Below, in pieces: positions 3-62,377 of a stretch of 64,000 bases of DNA (position 1 is the first letter of the stretch; every line of letters begins with the position of its first letter). The notes beneath the pieces are model-generated. The model ran no database searches, was not told the DNA's origin, and worked only from the letters and a program-made list of their open reading frames with translations. The translations under genes and the position numbers were made by a program. The DNA comes from Escherichia phage BYEP02, in sequence record OR757454.1; one strand, 5' to 3'.

Positions 3-341
3 CCAGGTTGTCAAATTGGATGGGCTCATGATACTTTGCTTGAAGCAGTAGATGCTGCTCAAAAATTAGGATATAAATATGTAGAGATTGTTCAACTACC
101 ATCAGGAACAGTTATTACTCTTGAAGAGTTCAATAACATTAAACCAAACTTTTTACTTTTTGCAGGTGATAATTATTATCCTCGTGGTGGATATGCTGAT
201 TTAATCGCGAAAGCCGCTACTGAAGATGAACTTCGTGATATTATCAAAGAAAATGAAAACAAACCGATGTATGGTTCTAATCGCTTTGATTGGTGGCAAA
301 TTGTAAATGCCCATACTCATACTATTGTTGATGAAGGTTGA
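3..341 (+). CDS. hypothetical protein, 5' partial (frame open to window edge)
   Basis: Frame open from position 3, stop TGA 339-341; next gene starts 3 nt later. Confidence 0.5.
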   Translation, partial: PGCQIGWAHDTLLEAVDAAQKLGYKYVEIVQLPSGTVITLEEFNNIKPNFLLFAGDNYYPRGGYADLIAKAATEDELRDIIKENENKPMYGSNRFDWWQIVNAHTHTIVDEG

Positions 342-343
342 TA

Positions 344-631
344 ATGATTCTTTATGCTAAAGTATCATCCATTGAAAATGGATATAAATATGATCAAGAA
401 GCAGTTAAAGCCTTGATTGATGATTATGGCATTTTAACATGTTTTGAAGTTGAAAAGGTTTATGTTGACCGTTCATCTTCTCAAGTTAAATTAGTGAAGG
501 AAGACCGTAAATTTAATACAGTAAATTTTGATTTCTTTATTGAAACAGAAAAAGGTCCTCTTGAATATGATATTTTCAAGAATCCTTTGGGTCTTGAATG
601 CATCGTAAATATGTATTATCATAAATGGTAA
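344..631 (+). CDS. hypothetical protein (95 aa)
   Basis: ATG 344 just after upstream stop; ORF to TAA 629-631. Confidence 0.5.
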   Translation: MILYAKVSSIENGYKYDQEAVKALIDDYGILTCFEVEKVYVDRSSSQVKLVKEDRKFNTVNFDFFIETEKGPLEYDIFKNPLGLECIVNMYYHKW

Positions 632-782
632 ATATGCTTTAAGAATTATTTGTTATTATTAACTCATATCGCACTGATTAATACCCTCTATCATCAAGGG
701 TTCTTTAAATATGCTTTAAGAATTATTTGTTATTATTAACTCATACCGCACTGATTAATACCCTCTATCATCAAGGGTTCTT
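629..782. repeat. 77-bp tandem duplication (629-705 / 706-782), 1 mismatch, intergenic
   Basis: Two adjacent near-identical 77-nt units read directly. Confidence 0.9.
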
Positions 783-818
783 GTTTGAGAGCCTTTGTTA
801 ATAATTGGGAATCATATT

Positions 819-1427
819 ATGGATACTAAATTAGCTGAAATTTTTGAAGGAAAACATCCAAATTTTAGTACAGGAAAGCTGAAAGATAAAATAATAAAAG
901 AAAATATTTTTCCATATGAGTGTGCAATTTGTAAAATTTCAAAATGGCAAAATAAGCATATTGTTCTGCAATTAGACCATATTGACGGAAATAACAAAAA
1001 TCATCTTAAATCAAATTTAAGATTATTATGTCCAAATTGCCATTCGCAAACTGATACTTTTGCTGGTAAAAATATTAAAAATAATAAAAAGCGTTATAAT
1101 GTTAGTGATGAAGAAATTTTAAACGCATTATTAAATTCTGCTACTATATCATCTGCAATTACTTCATTAGGTTTAAGTAAAGGCGGAAACTATAAAAGAT
1201 TCATTAAAATTGCTAATGATAATAAATTATATCATTTACTGGTAAATATTAATGAAAACATTTTAACTGATGAAATTTACGAAGAATTAGTTAAAATTGA
1301 TTATTCTAAATTTGGATGGGTTAGTAAAGCTGCTAAAATAATAGGTATAAGCCCACAAAAAGCTAGAAAATGGATAGAACGAAAGTGTCCAGAATTGATA
1401 GAACAATCTTTTTCACGTAATAAATAA
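819..1427 (+). CDS. HNH-family homing-type endonuclease
   Basis: HNH core in translation (LDHIDGNNKNH...LRLLCPNCH); C-terminal helix-rich segment; lies immediately 5' of tRNA cluster. Confidence 0.7.
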   Translation: MDTKLAEIFEGKHPNFSTGKLKDKIIKENIFPYECAICKISKWQNKHIVLQLDHIDGNNKNHLKSNLRLLCPNCHSQTDTFAGKNIKNNKKRYNVSDEEILNALLNSATISSAITSLGLSKGGNYKRFIKIANDNKLYHLLVNINENILTDEIYEELVKIDYSKFGWVSKAAKIIGISPQKARKWIERKCPELIEQSFSRNK

Positions 1428-14011: not shown

Positions 14012-14220
14012 ATATACATTATCCACATCCGTATGACCCAAAGAATAAGGCAGTAATTATTCGTCAATGGGAACGCATTTGCCGTACTAAATGTCCAATT
14101 AATAGTCCACATGATGTAGATAAAGACTACATTGGAACATTCGTTGAATATACCTTTATTGATAAGAAAGGTCGTAAACAACATGTAGAAGAATATTGCT
14201 TAAAGGTTACATGGTTATGA
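14008..14220 (+). CDS. hypothetical protein (70 aa)
   Basis: ATGA overlap with upstream stop. Confidence 0.45.
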   Translation: MNIHYPHPYDPKNKAVIIRQWERICRTKCPINSPHDVDKDYIGTFVEYTFIDKKGRKQHVEEYCLKVTWL

Positions 14221-14423
14221 GCCAAACTAGTATTCTTAAAAATGCCCACTGCGAAAAGTGTAAGTGGCCGGTTGTTTTTGCTTTATGCAACGATGAAATG
14301 ACTTGTGATTTCGATTATTGGTGCTATTGTTCTAATAAAGGATGCATCAATCATAAAGGTGAAGGATTTTATTCAGGATTTTATCCTTATCCTGATTTCG
14401 TTAAAGAAGGTAAACCAAAATGA
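14217..14423 (+). CDS. Cys-rich small protein (CxxC ... CxC ... C)
   Basis: CEKCKW...CNDEMTCDFDYWCYCSNKGC. Confidence 0.45.
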   Translation: MSQTSILKNAHCEKCKWPVVFALCNDEMTCDFDYWCYCSNKGCINHKGEGFYSGFYPYPDFVKEGKPK

Positions 14424-14596: not shown

Positions 14597-14778
14597 GCCT
14601 AAGCAAAGAACAAAAAGATAAATTGTTTGAGCTTATCCATGAACTTCTAGATGAGCATACAGAAGCAAACACCTTTTATGATGAATACGGCCCGCTATCT
14701 CCTGAACAGCAGGAAGAATTTGCTGATCGGTTTGATAAGAAAGAAAATGAATTAATAGCTTATGTGAATACGCTTTAA
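14593..14778 (+). CDS. hypothetical acidic protein (61 aa), GTG start
   Basis: GTGA overlap with upstream stop. Confidence 0.45.
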   Translation: MSLSKEQKDKLFELIHELLDEHTEANTFYDEYGPLSPEQQEEFADRFDKKENELIAYVNTL

Positions 14779-14787
14779 GAAGGTGAT

Positions 14788-15369
14788 ATGGCGAGTTTAA
14801 TTTTTACTTATGCAGCAATGAATGCTGGAAAATCTGCTTCTCTTTTGACTGCTGCGCATAATTATAAAGAACGCGGAATGAGTGTATTAGTTCTTAAGCC
14901 TGCTATTGATACTCGCGATTCTGTCTGTGAAGTCGTTTCTCGCATTGGAATTAAGCAGGAAGCGAATATTATTACGGATGATATGGATATTTTTGAGTTC
15001 TATAAATGGGCTGAAGCACAAAAAGATATTCATTGCGTATTTGTAGATGAAGCTCAGTTTTTAAAAACTGAACAGGTGCATCAATTAAGCCGAATTGTTG
15101 ATACATATAATGTTCCTGTTATGGCTTATGGGCTAAGGACTGATTTCGCTGGAAAATTATTTGAAGGTTCTAAAGAACTTTTGGCGATTGCAGATAAACT
15201 TATTGAACTAAAAGCAGTTTGTCATTGTGGTAAAAAAGCTATTATGACAGCTCGATTAATGGAAGATGGAACACCAGTTAAAGAAGGTAATCAAATCTGT
15301 ATTGGTGATGAAATTTATGTTTCTTTGTGTAGAAAACATTGGAATGAATTAACTAAAAAGCTCGGTTAG
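14788..15369 (+). CDS. tk: thymidine kinase
   Basis: Translation MASLIFTYAAMNAGKSASLL... with P-loop; matches T4 Tk. Confidence 0.95.
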   Translation: MASLIFTYAAMNAGKSASLLTAAHNYKERGMSVLVLKPAIDTRDSVCEVVSRIGIKQEANIITDDMDIFEFYKWAEAQKDIHCVFVDEAQFLKTEQVHQLSRIVDTYNVPVMAYGLRTDFAGKLFEGSKELLAIADKLIELKAVCHCGKKAIMTARLMEDGTPVKEGNQICIGDEIYVSLCRKHWNELTKKLG

Positions 15370-30672: not shown

Positions 30673-32563
30673 CAATTGAAAAAGAAATTGAAGGATTGAT
30701 TCATAAAACTAATAAAGACCTTTTGAACGAGAATGCTAATAAAGATTCTCGTGTTTTTCCAACTCAACGGGACCTTATGGCTGGTATTGTGTCTAAACAC
30801 ATTGCCAAAAATATGGTCCCGTCTTTTATTATGAAAGCGCATGAAAGCGGAATTATTCATTTCCATGATATTGATTATTCCCCTGCTCTTCCATTTACTA
30901 ATTGCTGTTTAGTAGATTTAAAAGGAATGCTTGAGAACGGATTTAAGCTTGGTAATGCACAGATTGAAACTCCTAAATCAATTGGCGTTGCTACTGCAAT
31001 TATGGCACAAATTACTGCACAGGTTGCTTCCCATCAATATGGCGGAACGACTTTTGCGAATGTAGATAAAGTACTTTCTCCTTATGTTAAACGCACATAT
31101 GCAAAACATATTGAGGATGCAGAAAAATGGCAAATCGCTGATGCGTTGAATTATGCTCAATCTAAAACAGAAAAAGACGTATACGATGCATTCCAAGCTT
31201 ATGAATATGAAGTAAATACTCTCTTTAGTTCAAACGGGCAAACACCTTTTGTAACAATTACATTTGGTACGGGAACTGACTGGACTGAACGAATGATTCA
31301 GAAAGCAATTCTGAAAAATCGTATTAAAGGTCTTGGTCGTGATGGGATAACTCCTATTTTCCCTAAGCTTGTTATGTTTGTTGAAGAAGGTGTTAATCTT
31401 TACAAAGACGATCCGAACTATGATATTAAGCAGCTTGCTCTAGAGTGTGCAAGCAAAAGGATGTATCCTGATATTATTTCAGCTAAGAACAATAAAGCTA
31501 TCACTGGTTCATCTATTCCTGTTTCTCCAATGGGATGCCGTAGTTTCTTGAGCGTATGGAAAGATTCGACTGGCAATGAAATTCTTGATGGACGTAATAA
31601 TCTTGGTGTTGTAACACTGAATCTTCCTCGCATCGCGTTAGATTCTTATATTGGAACACAGTTCAATGAACAGAAATTTGTTGAATTATTCAATGAACGA
31701 ATGGATTTGTGTTTTGAAGCTTTGATGTGTAGAATTAGTTCCTTAAAAGGAGTTAAAGCTACTGTTGCTCCTATTCTTTACCAAGAAGGTGCATTCGGGG
31801 TTCGTCTTAAACCTGATGACGATATAATTGAGTTATTTAAAAACGGTAGAAGTTCAGTCAAGAAGGTGCATTCGGGGTTCGTCTTAAACCTGATGACGAC
31901 ATAATTGAGTTATTTAAAAACGGTAGAAGTTCAGTGTCCTTAGGATACATTGGTATTCACGAATTGAATATTCTTGTCGGTCGTGATATTGGACAAGAAA
32001 TTTTAACTAAGATGAATGCTCATCTTAAACAGTGGACCGAAAGAACCGGTTTTGCTTTTAGCTTGTATTCTACTCCTGCTGAAAACCTTTGCTATCGCTT
32101 CTGTAAACTTGATACTGAAAAATATGGAAGCGTAAAAGATGTTACTGATAAAGGTTGGTACACTAATAGTTTCCATGTTTCAGTAGAAGAAAATATCACT
32201 CCGTTTGAAAAGATTTCTCGTGAAGCACCATATCATTTCATTGCGACAGGTGGTCACATTTCTTATGTTGAACTTCCTGATATGAAAAATAACCTAAAAG
32301 GTCTTGAGGCTGTATGGGATTATGCTGCACAACATTTAGATTATTTTGGTGTTAACATGCCAGTAGATAAATGTTTTACGTGTGGAAGCACTCATGAAAT
32401 GACTCCTACTGAAAACGGATTTGTTTGTTCTATTTGTGGAGAAACTGATCCTAAAAAGATGAACACAATAAGAAGAACATGCGGCTATCTTGGAAACCCG
32501 AACGAACGCGGATTTAATCTCGGCAAAAATAAAGAAATCATGCATAGGGTTAAACACCAATGA
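30669..32563 (+). CDS. nrdD: anaerobic ribonucleotide reductase NrdD, frameshifted by a 77-bp duplication; no intron
   Basis: 605 aa after removing 77 nt; both halves read as T4 NrdD. Confidence 0.9.
31782..31935. repeat. 77-bp tandem duplication (31782-31858 / 31859-31935), 1 mismatch, inside nrdD
   Basis: Read directly. Confidence 0.9.
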
Positions 32564-33030
32564 ATTATGATAGATTTTATCCTTGCGATTTTATTAATGG
32601 TCCTGGCTGCAGGACCGTTCTTTTCGTTACAGGTTGTTTGCATAAATGTGAAGGGTGTTATAATAAATCAACATGGAATGCTAGAAATGGTATTCCATTC
32701 ACTGGTGAAACACTAGAGCAATTAATTGAATGTTTGAATAATGATTATATAGAAGGATTGACTATAACTGGAGGTGACCCTCTCTATCCTGATAACCGAG
32801 ATGTTATTCATTGCATTGTTCAAACAGTAAAAAATCTTTATCCCAATAAAAGCATTTGGTTGTGGACAGGATATAAGTTTGAAGATATTAAACAACTAGA
32901 AATGCTTAAATATGTTGATGTTATTATTGATGGGAAGTATGAGAAAAATCTTCCGACCAAAAAGCTGTGGCGAGGTTCAGATAATCAGCGACTTTGGTCA
33001 AATACCGATGGGGTGTGGAAACATGATTAA
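32560..33030 (+). CDS. nrdG: anaerobic RNR activating enzyme NrdG (radical SAM)
   Basis: Cys cluster CLHKCEGC; ATGA overlap with nrdD stop; 156 aa. Confidence 0.9.
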   Translation: MNYDRFYPCDFINGPGCRTVLFVTGCLHKCEGCYNKSTWNARNGIPFTGETLEQLIECLNNDYIEGLTITGGDPLYPDNRDVIHCIVQTVKNLYPNKSIWLWTGYKFEDIKQLEMLKYVDVIIDGKYEKNLPTKKLWRGSDNQRLWSNTDGVWKHD

Positions 33031-59188: not shown

Positions 59189-59707
59189 ATGGCTCACTTT
59201 AATGAATGTGCTCATTTGATCGAAGGTGTTGATAAAGCAAATCGTGCATATGCTGAGTATATTATGCACAGTATTGACCCATTGCAGGTTATGCTTGACA
59301 TGCAGCGGCATTTACAGATTCGTTTGGCTAATGATAAGCCAGAAACAAATCGTCATCCTGATTCACTTGAAACTGCAGGAGAAGTTCTTGCTTGGTTGCG
59401 AAACCAAGACGATTATATCGCAGATGAAACTCGCGAGCTATATACTTCTCTTGGTGGTATGAGTAATGGTGAAAAAGAAGCTTCTGCTGTATGGAAACCT
59501 TGGAAGAAACGTTATTCTGAAATGCAATCCAAGAAAATTCAAGATTTATCTCCCGAAGATCAGCTTGAAATTAAATTTGAACTGATTGATCAATTTCACT
59601 TTTTCATGAATAAATTTATTGCTCTTGGAATGTCGGCTGAAGAAATCTTTAAACTTTATTATCTGAAAAATGCTGAAAACTTCGCTCGTCAAGACCGAGG
59701 TTATTGA
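59189..59707 (+). CDS. 56: dCTPase/dUTPase gp56 (MazG-like pyrophosphatase)
   Basis: ~172 aa; MAHFNECAHLIEGVDKA... and position between dam and soc as in T4. Confidence 0.8.
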   Translation: MAHFNECAHLIEGVDKANRAYAEYIMHSIDPLQVMLDMQRHLQIRLANDKPETNRHPDSLETAGEVLAWLRNQDDYIADETRELYTSLGGMSNGEKEASAVWKPWKKRYSEMQSKKIQDLSPEDQLEIKFELIDQFHFFMNKFIALGMSAEEIFKLYYLKNAENFARQDRGY

Positions 59708-59901
59708 TGGCTAGTTTAAATAAACGCCAGCTCAAGAAAGCCCATAAGAAACGTATTGACCAGCTATTTAAAGATTATAACAAAGAGCTCGTGTGTGAGC
59801 TCTTAACTAATCAACTTCGTATGGTTGAAATTATAGAAGGTCCTGACGAAATTTTTGTCAGTGAAGAAGCTTTAAAATTAATTATAGAGCATTCAAAATG
59901 A
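59704..59901 (+). CDS. hypothetical basic protein (65 aa)
   Basis: ATGA overlap. Confidence 0.45.
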   Translation: MMASLNKRQLKKAHKKRIDQLFKDYNKELVCELLTNQLRMVEIIEGPDEIFVSEEALKLIIEHSK

Positions 59902-60107
59902 AATTTGATTTTTATGCATGGCAAAAAGCCGGGAGACCGGCTAGTCGAGCATTTGGTTCTGATGGATATAATATTAGAGCCCATTGGAAATTTAATGCTC
60001 CAGAAGATTATTCTCCGGTAATTATTAACGGCGATGTTGTTATATTAACTAAAATTGGGTATTTTAACGTTCCGCGAGAATTTATTATAAATAATCATGT
60101 AATTTAA
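59898..60107 (+). CDS. hypothetical protein (69 aa)
   Basis: ATGA overlap. Confidence 0.45.
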   Translation: MKFDFYAWQKAGRPASRAFGSDGYNIRAHWKFNAPEDYSPVIINGDVVILTKIGYFNVPREFIINNHVI

Positions 60108-60369: not shown

Positions 60370-60375
60370 ATTCAA

Positions 60376-60399
60376 GGACTCCTTCGGGAGTCCTTTTTT
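60376..60399 (+). terminator. intrinsic terminator, UUCG tetraloop with T-tract
   Basis: ggactccttcgggagtcc followed by tttttt. Confidence 0.7.
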
Positions 60400-60409
60400 C
60401 ATTTAAATG

Positions 60410-60439
60410 GTTTACTTTCCAAAATGAGTATGGTATAAT
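60410..60439 (+). promoter_or_regulatory. T4 early-type promoter (GTTTAC, 18 nt, TATAAT)
   Basis: Consensus motifs. Confidence 0.55.
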
Positions 60440-60465: not shown

Positions 60466-60672
60466 ATGTTAAATCGCTGGATTAAACCAAATGAAGATTT
60501 AGATATTATCATTTCACGACATGTAATGAAGAAATATGAACTACAGCCATGGTCTACAGAAGTTGTTGTGCATTCATTTATGATGTACGCAGATGGTTCT
60601 GTCGAATTTAATGCAGAGATTCGATATGATTATGGCGAAAAGCAAGTCGAATTCAAGAGAGGCTTTTTGTAA
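60466..60672 (+). CDS. hypothetical protein (68 aa)
   Basis: ATG with GAGGAGAG RBS. Confidence 0.45.
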   Translation: MLNRWIKPNEDLDIIISRHVMKKYELQPWSTEVVVHSFMMYADGSVEFNAEIRYDYGEKQVEFKRGFL

Positions 60673-61004
60673 TGTTTATCTTTAATTGGTTTAAAAGTTT
60701 CTTTACGGATTTTTTCTCTACAACTCCCGGAGAAGGTGTAGTTCCTATTTCAAATGACTACCTCTCTTTAACTGTAGTTGAATATGTTTATATGGGAGAT
60801 GGAACAGTAGAAGCAGTTACTATGACTTATGAAGAAGCCCAAGAATATTATAAAAATCCTTGGCGCTGGTCAGTACCTACTACATCATCTAATACACAGT
60901 CTAGTTCTGATTCATATGATACAAATGTCCCTGTTCATGTATGGGCAGGTGATTCATGCGGAAGTTCTTGTGATTCTAGTTGTTCATCTACATCTTGCGA
61001 TTGA
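60672..61004 (+). CDS. hypothetical protein with Cys/Ser-rich C-terminal tail
   Basis: Ends [18 protein letters not shown]. Confidence 0.5.
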
Positions 61005-61013
61005 GGAAAATTA

Positions 61014-61498
61014 TGGAAGCGATTTTGTTTGAAATGTATATTAGCAGTAATAGCATGTCGTTTGCTAAAGATGTTCCAATTACTGTAGCCGTAGTGATTG
61101 ATAAGGGTTATTGTAACCCTATGTATCTCGTAGAAAATTTCGTTTCAATGCCAGTTCCAGAAGATGTTGAAATAAAACTTAAAAAGATCGGAATTATTGA
61201 AACTGTGCCAAATAGTCCGTTTAGAGCAATTGAAGCATTTACTAAATCCGAATACATTAATGTTAGCGCAGAACAATATAATGGTAATCCTTTATCTTTT
61301 TATTCGTACGATTCAGTATATGACTGGAAAATAAATGAAGGAAATAAATTTATAATTGCGAGTGAAGATGCTTTATCATACTTTATTTATTATGTATGGA
61401 ATAATTTAAAACCAAATTTGCTAAAAATTCATGAATTTGACGATGCTCCTACTATTGTTTTAGGTAAAATAAATGAAAGTTCTGAAGAAGATTCTTGA
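61014..61498 (+). CDS. hypothetical protein (161 aa)
   Basis: ATG with GAGGAAAA RBS. Confidence 0.5.
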
Positions 61499-61837: not shown

Positions 61838-62377
61838 AGTAGCAAAATTATATTCAATAGAATTTATGTCTAAAGAAGGTAAATCAGTAAATACACTTGA
61901 TAAAAAGTGCTCATTAATTATTCCTATTATTCAATAGAATTTATGTCCAAAGAAGGTAAATCAGTAAATACACTTGATAAAAATTGCTCGTTAATTATTC
62001 CTTTAGCAGAAAATCCGGATATTTTAATTAAAGATATAAAAGAAAGAAAATATCCAGAAAATGTTATTCTAATTATAAAGCATACTGAAGATATTTTGCA
62101 GAATACTGATTCACCATTTTCTTCTTCTGAAGCTTTAACTATTAAAGGCTATAAAAGAGCTCATGAATATGGTCTTTTTGACCTGTTTGAAGACGATAAA
62201 GTTAAATTAGCGAGTCAACCTTTTAAAAGTAAAACATTCATTATTGAAGATATTAAAGATATAAATGCATTTGTTAGGATGGTCTGGGCTCATTTTGATG
62301 TTGGACTACGCTGGAGAATGTCCGAAGAAGAAAGAAAGATTGCTGAAGCTAATCGTCATTTTGGTTTTTATCGCTAG
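61830..62377 (+). CDS. hypothetical protein, frameshifted by a 77-bp duplication
   Basis: 156 aa after removing 77 nt. Confidence 0.5.
61849..62002. repeat. 77-bp tandem duplication (about 61849-61925 / 61926-62002), 3-4 mismatches
   Basis: Read directly. Confidence 0.85.

Follow-up and report, generated by a model that had tools for sequence, protein, structure and literature searches.

A conserved Cys-Asp tail in Mrh.1 of T4-like phages and its possible role as a metal ligand

No phage is better studied than T4, and still dozens of its early genes, including mrh.1, are without known function. One of the questions raised by the mrh.1 locus is why a small early protein should end in a stretch made up largely of Cys, Ser and Asp, and what such an end might do for the phage. 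We looked at this question in a stretch of 64,000 nucleotides from Escherichia phage BYEP02 (record OR757454.1), which is called the window below. A preliminary description, made from the DNA letters, had placed an ORF at the locus and had drawn attention to its C-terminal tail. The ORF is real, with an ATG start, 110 codons and a TGA stop (Table 1).

The window is part of the genome of a T4-like phage (Tequatrovirus). The 4 kb surrounding the ORF are 99.2% identical to Escherichia phage slur03 and match more than 600 T4-like phage records. The product scores 94.9 bits against Pfam DUF7206 (PF23836; cut-off 25.6), with residues 3-110 aligned to positions 1-107 of the 107-position profile, and it also matches PHROG 2031 (phrog_2031, E=1.1e-33). 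Mrh.1 is the annotation of the orthologue both in slur03 and in T4 (NP_049642.1, T4 coordinates 14685-15026). The gene order in the window is dam, 56, soc, mrh.2, mrh.1, mrh, srh, modA.x, modA, modB, in which the modA.x genes 3' of srh are modA.4, modA.3 and modA.2, and modA and modB encode ADP-ribosyltransferases; T4 and distant relatives keep this order around mrh.1, in the early-gene orientation. Two motifs of the family are found in the ORF, E-Y-V-Y-M-G-D-G at residues 37-44 and the C-terminal S-C-D at residues 108-110. Taken together, the profile score, the synteny and the motifs demonstrate that the ORF is a member of the T4 Mrh.1/DUF7206 group; it is the known early gene mrh.1 of a T4-like phage and its product belongs to a phage-only family. 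The identical 110 amino acid protein has already been deposited for this phage (WPK18172.1) and is part of a 90%-identity cluster of 515 sequences, all of them labelled hypothetical or Mrh.1. Both the gene and the family are therefore already catalogued, as hypothetical protein, and what is described here is only modestly surprising. The protein is 91-95% identical to those of the T4 clade and shares synteny, motifs and tail with T4 Mrh.1, from which it differs in length (110 against 113 amino acids) by a three-residue deletion (NTQ) in the Ser/Thr linker. It has S32 at a position where most relatives have Pro. The T4 Δ12 dispensable region spans map units 16,280-3,778 (PMC6070864), and by its position the T4 mrh.1 gene falls within it. 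Our literature search found no paper on Mrh.1, DUF7206, mrh.2 or the mrh-soc intergenic region, and papers on Mrh and MotB (PMC8076793, PMC6070864) deal with genes next to mrh.1 but not with Mrh.1 itself.

Table 1. Features of the mrh.1 locus, in positions of the window; residue numbers are those of Mrh.1.
Feature	Position	Strand	Details
Terminator-like hairpin after soc	60374..60395	+	9-bp stem (5 GC pairs), then a T run
Candidate sigma-70-type early promoter	60411..60439	+	TTTACT, 17 nt, TATAAT; upstream TG (extended -10)
mrh.2	60466..60672	+	68 aa; phrog_1873; TAA stop overlaps mrh.1 ATG (TAATG)
mrh.1 ORF	60672..61004	+	110 aa plus stop; ATG start, TGA stop
N-terminal amphipathic helix (predicted)	60681..60716	+	residues 4-15 (AlphaFold2); consensus M-I-x-W-L-K-x-L-F
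Linear motif P-G-E-G-V-V-P-I	60726..60749	+	residues 19-26; P19 and P25 at least 90% conserved
β-hairpin (predicted)	60771..60827	+	residues 34-52; AlphaFold2 strands 34-40 and 46-52; pLDDT 75-86, the highest of the model
Near-invariant block E-Y-V-Y-M-G-D-G-x-x-E-x-V	60780..60818	+	E37-V49, within the β-hairpin; YMGDG turn central
Variable Ser/Thr-rich linker	60855..60947	+	residues 62-92; occupancy <40%, pLDDT <50; predicted disordered
C-terminal tail	60948..61001	+	residues 93-110; four Cys (C96, C100, C104, C109)
S99-C100-D101-S102	60966..60977	+	best counterpart of the family-wide upstream S-C-D-S; each residue at least 90% conserved in alignment A2
Terminal S108-C109-D110-COOH	60993..61001	+	most conserved element of the family
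mrh Shine-Dalgarno and start	61003..61015	+	GAGG overlaps mrh.1 TGA; mrh ATG at 61013

How unusual is the tail? Its 18 residues read as they were first written down, except that five Cys had been counted and there are four, in the spacing Cx3Cx3Cx4C. As a chance background we used the 117 long, mostly non-overlapping ORFs of the window, in which Cys makes up 1.4% and Ser 6.6% of the residues. Stretches of 18 residues with at least four Cys are present in three of these ORFs and about two such stretches are expected by chance, so that the Cys count by itself is unremarkable. It is the composition that stands out: only the mrh.1 tail, among the 117 ORFs, has an 18-residue stretch in which at least 15 residues are C, S or D. 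The two other Cys-rich stretches are in an NrdG-type radical-SAM Fe-S activase and in a protein with the Pfam 'Phage zinc binding domain'. Beneath the tail, Tandem Repeats Finder detected no tandem repeat in the DNA. The suggestion that such a tail is uncommon in phage early proteins can thus be kept for its composition within the window, but not more widely, as the tail is the hallmark of a family present in hundreds of T4-like phages.

In order to describe this family, several searches were combined. A single-sequence search together with a full HMMER scan of 1.84 billion representatives returned only close relatives and one protein at 59% identity; loci from IMG/VR contributed homologues of Mosigvirus/Dhakavirus type and from Serratia phages, and a profile search gave 137 proteins, 113 of which are full length (alignment A2). 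Tails were read directly from protein and DNA sequences, and tblastn masks them as low complexity. The 113 full-length members come from T4-like phages of Enterobacterales only, and the named sources of the family are T4-like phages of Escherichia, Shigella, Salmonella, Yersinia, Citrobacter, Serratia, Erwinia, Kosakonia, Enterobacter, Cronobacter and Edwardsiella. No bacterial or archaeal relative of Mrh.1 was found in 185,579 species, each represented by one genome. It was also considered that the tail may be a portable module carried by other proteins, or a mimic of a host tail. A degenerate DNA pattern for CDS-x4-SCD-stop gave no support for this, as it returned the same T4-like contigs in IMG/VR and nothing in the 185,579 species genomes; this is a weak negative, since the pattern fixes the spacing between the two Cys at six residues and also fixes several codons.

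The preliminary description had proposed to look for the tail in homologues, and it is present in all 113 full-length members in the form ...S-C-D-S-(S/G/D)n-S-C-D-COOH, rich in Ser, Gly, Asp and Tyr. The last Cys (C109 in our protein) is invariant. It is followed at the very C-terminus by Asp in 110 members, by Asn in two and by Glu in one, and is preceded by Ser in 104/113. After the penultimate Cys, 96/113 members have D and 95/113 have D-S. Between the two family-wide Cys there are 4-10 residues, most often six, and these are nearly all S, G or D (5% are T, P, F, V, Y or A). Across the family K, R, H, Q, I, L and M are absent from the last 20 residues, Glu occurs there once, and Cys makes up about 10% of this stretch. 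In the alignment, conservation by column is highest in the EYVYMGDG block and in the tail motifs (S99-S102 and S108-D110). That the tail is among the two best-conserved parts of the family makes functional thiols plausible. We found no earlier description of this family-wide CD...CD-COOH signature, by which an odd-looking tail becomes a precise and testable one: two Cys in every member, each usually before Asp, of which the second Cys-Asp is the C-terminus of a disordered tail.

Exactly two Cys are found within the last 25 residues in 107/113 members; four are found only in the T4 clade and three in two intermediates, and 105/113 have no Cys outside the tail. Two Cys are therefore family-wide, and the T4 clade, including the protein of this window, has gained two more. 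Which of the T4 Cys corresponds to the family-wide upstream Cys is uncertain because the tail is of low complexity. In alignment A1 it is C104, with Tyr or Ser opposite C96 and C100, and in alignment A2 it is C100, which is the sole T4 Cys with Asp-Ser after it. The orthologues with two Cys (JS98, the RB69 group, Karamvirus-like phages, Serratia PS2 and Edwardsiella PEi20) share with the T4 clade the helix, the EYVYMGDG hairpin and the ...SCDS...SCD-COOH end. They carry Tyr, Ser or Gly in place of the extra Cys, and their middle part is a charged helix with a short hydrophobic stretch, whereas the T4 clade has the Ser/Thr linker.

The coding sequence of the tail indicates what is being conserved. 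In the T4 clade, 13 codon columns of the tail are invariant, four vary only synonymously and one nonsynonymously; the corresponding numbers in the Mosigvirus-like clade are 10, 10 and one. The DNA of the tail varies chiefly at synonymous sites (TGC/TGT, GAT/GAC, TCN/AGY), and even the terminal Cys-Asp codons have synonymous TGC/TGT and GAT/GAC variants. At the protein level, the T4-clade members that were read have an identical tail or a single S/G change, and the tail with four Cys is kept in another 14/14 sequences taken from the cluster of 515. Synonymous changes outnumber nonsynonymous ones by far, which demonstrates selection on the peptide and not on a DNA or RNA element.

A model of the whole protein was created in AlphaFold2 with the 113-sequence alignment. 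It is a low-confidence monomer model, with a mean pLDDT of 59.6. The predicted N-terminal helix has a hydrophobic moment of 0.45-0.81, and its residues W6, K8 and F15 are nearly invariant. G20, G22 and I26 of the linear motif that follows are conserved in the closer clades. In the β-hairpin G44 is invariant, and E37, Y40, G42, D43, E47 and V49 are at least 90% conserved. The model also contains a helix at residues 53-61 and shows residues 70-110 as disordered, while residues 55-86 are replaced wholesale from clade to clade. In a model of the JS98 orthologue, a helix at residues 3-8 and a hairpin (strands 28-32 and 38-42) come before a long charged helix (60-81), and the tail is disordered, so the helix and the hairpin were recovered in both orthologues, and in both the pLDDT of the tail is below 50. 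The predicted plan of the family is then one of three conserved elements, namely the helix with PGEGVVPI, the hairpin and the tail, set on variable, disordered linkers. A profile search of PDB sequences gave no meaningful match (the best, at E=0.19, was a capsid protein), and a Foldseek search of the model against viral structures returned family members only.

A signal peptide or a transmembrane helix at the N-terminus was considered and rejected, as the Kyte-Doolittle mean over 19 residues reaches 0.88 at most and the N-termini of the orthologues are amphipathic and polar. With no signal peptide and no stretch of transmembrane grade, Mrh.1 is most likely cytoplasmic and perhaps peripherally associated with the membrane. 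For the same reason the disulfide-rich tail that was first suggested is unlikely, since a protein without a signal peptide presumably stays in the reducing cytoplasm.

Several known systems resemble the tail in some respect. Zinc ribbons and the Phage_zn_bind protein of the window (14211..14423) are, like Mrh.1, small phage proteins in which a short stretch holds about four Cys. However, zinc ribbons, treble clefs and Phage_zn_bind are folded around fixed CxxC/CxxH knuckles, whereas disorder is predicted for the Mrh.1 tail, in which there is no CxxC and only two Cys are conserved; no zinc-domain match to Mrh.1 was found in Pfam. Metallothionein-like proteins typically have Cys above 15-30%, arranged as CxC, CxxC or CC, while the Mrh.1 tail has 4 Cys in 18 residues and none of these arrangements. 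The C-terminal tail of the ribonucleotide reductase α subunit (T4 NrdA, ...DDCAACKL) is also a flexible acidic C-terminus with a Cys pair a few residues from its end, and C104/C109 or C100/C109 of Mrh.1 lie in this layout, within about 10 residues of a disordered end. Yet the NrdA tail has a CxxC and re-reduces the active site of a large enzyme, whereas in Mrh.1 the spacing is 4-10 residues, the rest of the protein is only a helix and a hairpin, and there is no Pfam ribonucleotide reductase domain. Finally, precursors of RiPPs (SCIFF/ranthipeptides and the microcin B17 type) share with Mrh.1 a C-terminus rich in Cys, Ser, Gly and Asp and a conserved N-terminal part; they are typically much shorter than Mrh.1, which has no match to their families and no maturase nearby. 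As the defining features of these groups are lacking, Mrh.1 is not a member of the zinc-ribbon type, the metallothioneins, the RiPP precursors or the ribonucleotide reductase tails.

What, then, could the tail do? The option that we place first, tentatively and at rather less than an even chance, is that it acts as a flexible claw of thiols and carboxylates that chelates a metal ion. Cys thiolates beside Asp carboxylates, together with a free C-terminal carboxylate and amid small flexible residues, are well suited to chelation, and in a flexible chelator the spacing of the ligands can vary. In line with this, the residues of ligand type are fixed in the family while the spacers are small and variable, and the T4 clade has gained its extra Cys as a lineage-specific event. 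The window's other Cys clusters, in the Fe-S activase and the zinc-binding domain, can be seen as a soft prior for metal. Several points weigh on the other side. Only two Cys are conserved, never as CxxC or CxC and with a spacing of 4-10 residues; the tail has no His; no metal-binding match to Mrh.1 was found in Pfam or NCBIfam; and an Asp next to a Cys would raise the pKa of the thiol. A peptide that docks by its carboxylate would just as typically have an invariant C-terminal residue. With no CxxC knuckles and a predicted disorder, the tail is not a classical structural metal site.

If the tail does chelate a metal, we infer that it would be a soft or borderline one, such as Zn2+, Fe2+ or an Fe-S cluster, or possibly Cu+, held by the thiols and carboxylates. 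The four-Cys tail of the T4 clade may be self-sufficient as a chelator, while two-Cys tails might complete the site with two chains or with ligands lent by a partner protein. The N-terminal helix and the hairpin could place Mrh.1 at the membrane or on a partner from the host or the phage. The role of such a protein would be an accessory one in host takeover or fitness, as the gene lies in the dispensable region of T4. A tail that binds metal or traps a host protein would give DUF7206 a function and perhaps reveal a new mechanism of host takeover by a small protein.

Another hypothesis, which we regard as unlikely though worth keeping in sight, is that the tail is a metal-free docking motif whose terminal Cys-Asp-COOH and upstream S-C-D-S fit into a pocket on a protein of the host or the phage. 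The Cys would then be ordinary contacts or would form a mixed disulfide with the target, and the N-terminal elements would serve for a second contact or for localisation. Many small T4 early proteins work by binding one host protein. The constancy of the terminal Cys (113/113) and of the Asp after it (110/113) would suit such a motif, as would a tail that is disordered in isolation in the AlphaFold2 models and a beads-on-string layout with variable linkers. However, about 20 residues that are nearly all S, G, D, C and Y and offer no hydrophobic anchors would make an unusual motif, and the two extra Cys of the T4 clade fit thiol chemistry more easily.

Thiol chemistry without a metal is also conceivable, although we find it doubtful. 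Here the two conserved Cys would cycle between dithiol and disulfide, as in the tail of the class I ribonucleotide reductase α subunit, and host or phage proteins of the thioredoxin or glutaredoxin type would use Mrh.1 as a substrate, a decoy or a relay. T4 encodes its own thioredoxin and glutaredoxin-like proteins, and its NrdA ends in ...KADDCAACKL, with a Cys pair near the C-terminus after acidic residues, much as the flexible acidic tail of Mrh.1 has a pair of Cys in its last 6-12 residues. The likeness is one of layout only, with no sequence homology. Moreover, a loop that varies between 4 and 10 residues is not a tuned redox motif, the adjacent Asp disfavour formation of the thiolate, and Mrh.1 lacks a catalytic body that a relay could serve.

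A more speculative mechanism, to which we would give only a slim chance, joins capture of a protein with thiol or metal chemistry. Mrh.1 would be a disordered 'thiol hook' takeover factor, whose Cys-Asp...Cys-Asp-COOH captures a host protein through a shared metal site or a mixed disulfide. The target could be, for example, a part of the transcription or heat-shock machinery that contains Cys or Zn, with the amphipathic helix at the N-terminus acting as a tether for the complex. Effects on this machinery have been reported or postulated for the neighbours mrh, srh and modA/B.

It is very improbable that Mrh.1 is a precursor with an N-terminal leader and a Cys/Ser-rich core that is modified in the manner of RiPPs by an enzyme of the host or an unrecognised one of the phage, through thioether, azole or azoline formation or other Cys/Ser chemistry. 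The conserved N-terminal elements, the variable linker and the conserved Cys/Ser/Gly/Asp C-terminus recall SCIFF/ranthipeptide and microcin B17-type precursors in layout and composition only. A length of 110 amino acids is long for a precursor, in Pfam the only match is DUF7206, with no RiPP precursor family, and in NCBIfam a spurious match of 11.6 bits is all that appears up to E 1. In T4, slur03, JS98, PS2 and two metagenomic relatives, no radical SAM/SPASM protein, YcaO or other maturase adjoins the gene, and the only radical-SAM-type protein among the Cys-cluster ORFs checked is the NrdG-type activase, 28 kb away. That the tail has no specific function, being the chance low-complexity or slippage-made end of a dispensable ORF, is hardly credible: the region is indeed low in complexity and Ser-rich, 4 Cys in 18 residues are not rare and T4 mrh.1 sits in a dispensable region, but the motif is kept in 113/113 over many T4-like genera while the central part of the protein has been exchanged freely, synonymous far exceeds nonsynonymous change and no DNA tandem repeat is present.

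The surroundings of the gene suggest how it may be expressed. The terminator-like hairpin after soc would form the upstream boundary of a transcription unit of mrh.2, mrh.1 and mrh, and the candidate promoter downstream of the hairpin is positioned so that it could drive all three genes. This candidate matches the consensus at 10/12 positions, which is a consensus match only, and promoter-like sites are in total no more numerous in the region than in shuffled sequence. Rfam gave only a sub-threshold chance match, outside the mrh.1 ORF. The overlap between the mrh.2 stop and the mrh.1 start makes translational coupling of the two likely. We considered Mrh.2 as an obligate partner of Mrh.1 and rejected it, as the coupled upstream ORF is homologous in the nearer clades only; JS98 has a conserved mrh.2 and one metagenomic phage a weakly conserved one, and in more distant phages it is not conserved. 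On the other side of mrh.1, the product of mrh matches PF24070 (T4_MRH) with E=1.2e-41.

P0003, a mosaic Mrh.1 variant of 164 amino acids with 17 members (its sources include phage 235Ecol030PP and Yersinia phage fPS-90), starts with the T4-type N-terminal half and Ser/Thr linker, followed by a Mosigvirus-type middle region (MEEIIRQPEKAGNVG...LNSKKLKEHL...) and then by the four-Cys tail. This order suggests intragenic recombination in which both conserved ends were kept. An ORF of 67 amino acids overlaps mrh.1 in another frame, and the deposited protein P0006 (141 amino acids, from a 175-kb record) is Mrh.1 shifted into that frame; its probable origin is therefore an error in sequencing or assembly, or else a frameshift that occurs naturally, and not a second gene. 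P0008 (150 amino acids, from a 647-bp ENA contig) joins the N-terminus of Mrh.1, in frame, to repeat-like sequence (…REAWRAAIHGVTKSR…); most likely it is a chimera from metagenome assembly.

In the window, residue 32 of Mrh.1 is Ser, while nearly all T4-clade relatives have Pro. At tail residue 103, Ser is found in the window (DSSC) versus Gly in slur03 (DSGC), the closest DNA relative.

The mrh.2 stop and the mrh.1 start share TAATG; at its other end, mrh.1 terminates in a TGA that overlaps GAGG, the ribosome-binding site of mrh. Judged from these junctions, mrh.2, mrh.1 and mrh appear to form a tightly coupled operon. In the T4-like phage JS98, the mrh.1 stop shares TAATG with the start of the next gene, and mrh is absent. 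The T4_MRH family is also matched by modA.3 (E=3.4e-36), only about 400 bp downstream of mrh, which marks modA.3 as a predicted mrh paralogue.

T4 has the homing endonuclease gene segF (247..921 of the T4 locus L014) in the interval from gene 56 to soc; in BYEP02, two small ORFs occupy this interval instead. Besides the mrh.1 tail, only two 18-residue stretches in the window contain at least four Cys, each in one of the two Cys-cluster proteins of the table.

Features in the window of BYEP02
Feature	Position	Strand	Remark
Cys-cluster protein, 70 aa	14211..14423		Pfam 'Phage zinc binding domain'
Cys-cluster protein	32560..33030		NrdG-type radical-SAM/4Fe-4S activase
Two small ORFs	59704..60107		65 aa and 69 aa; 69-aa ORF matches DUF7422
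mrh.2/mrh.1 TAATG	60670..60674		
Mrh.1 residue 32	60765..60767		
67-aa ORF	60829..61032	+	
Mrh.1 residue 103	60978..60980		
mrh.1 TGA/mrh GAGG	61002..61015		
mrh	61013..61498		
modA.3	61907..62377
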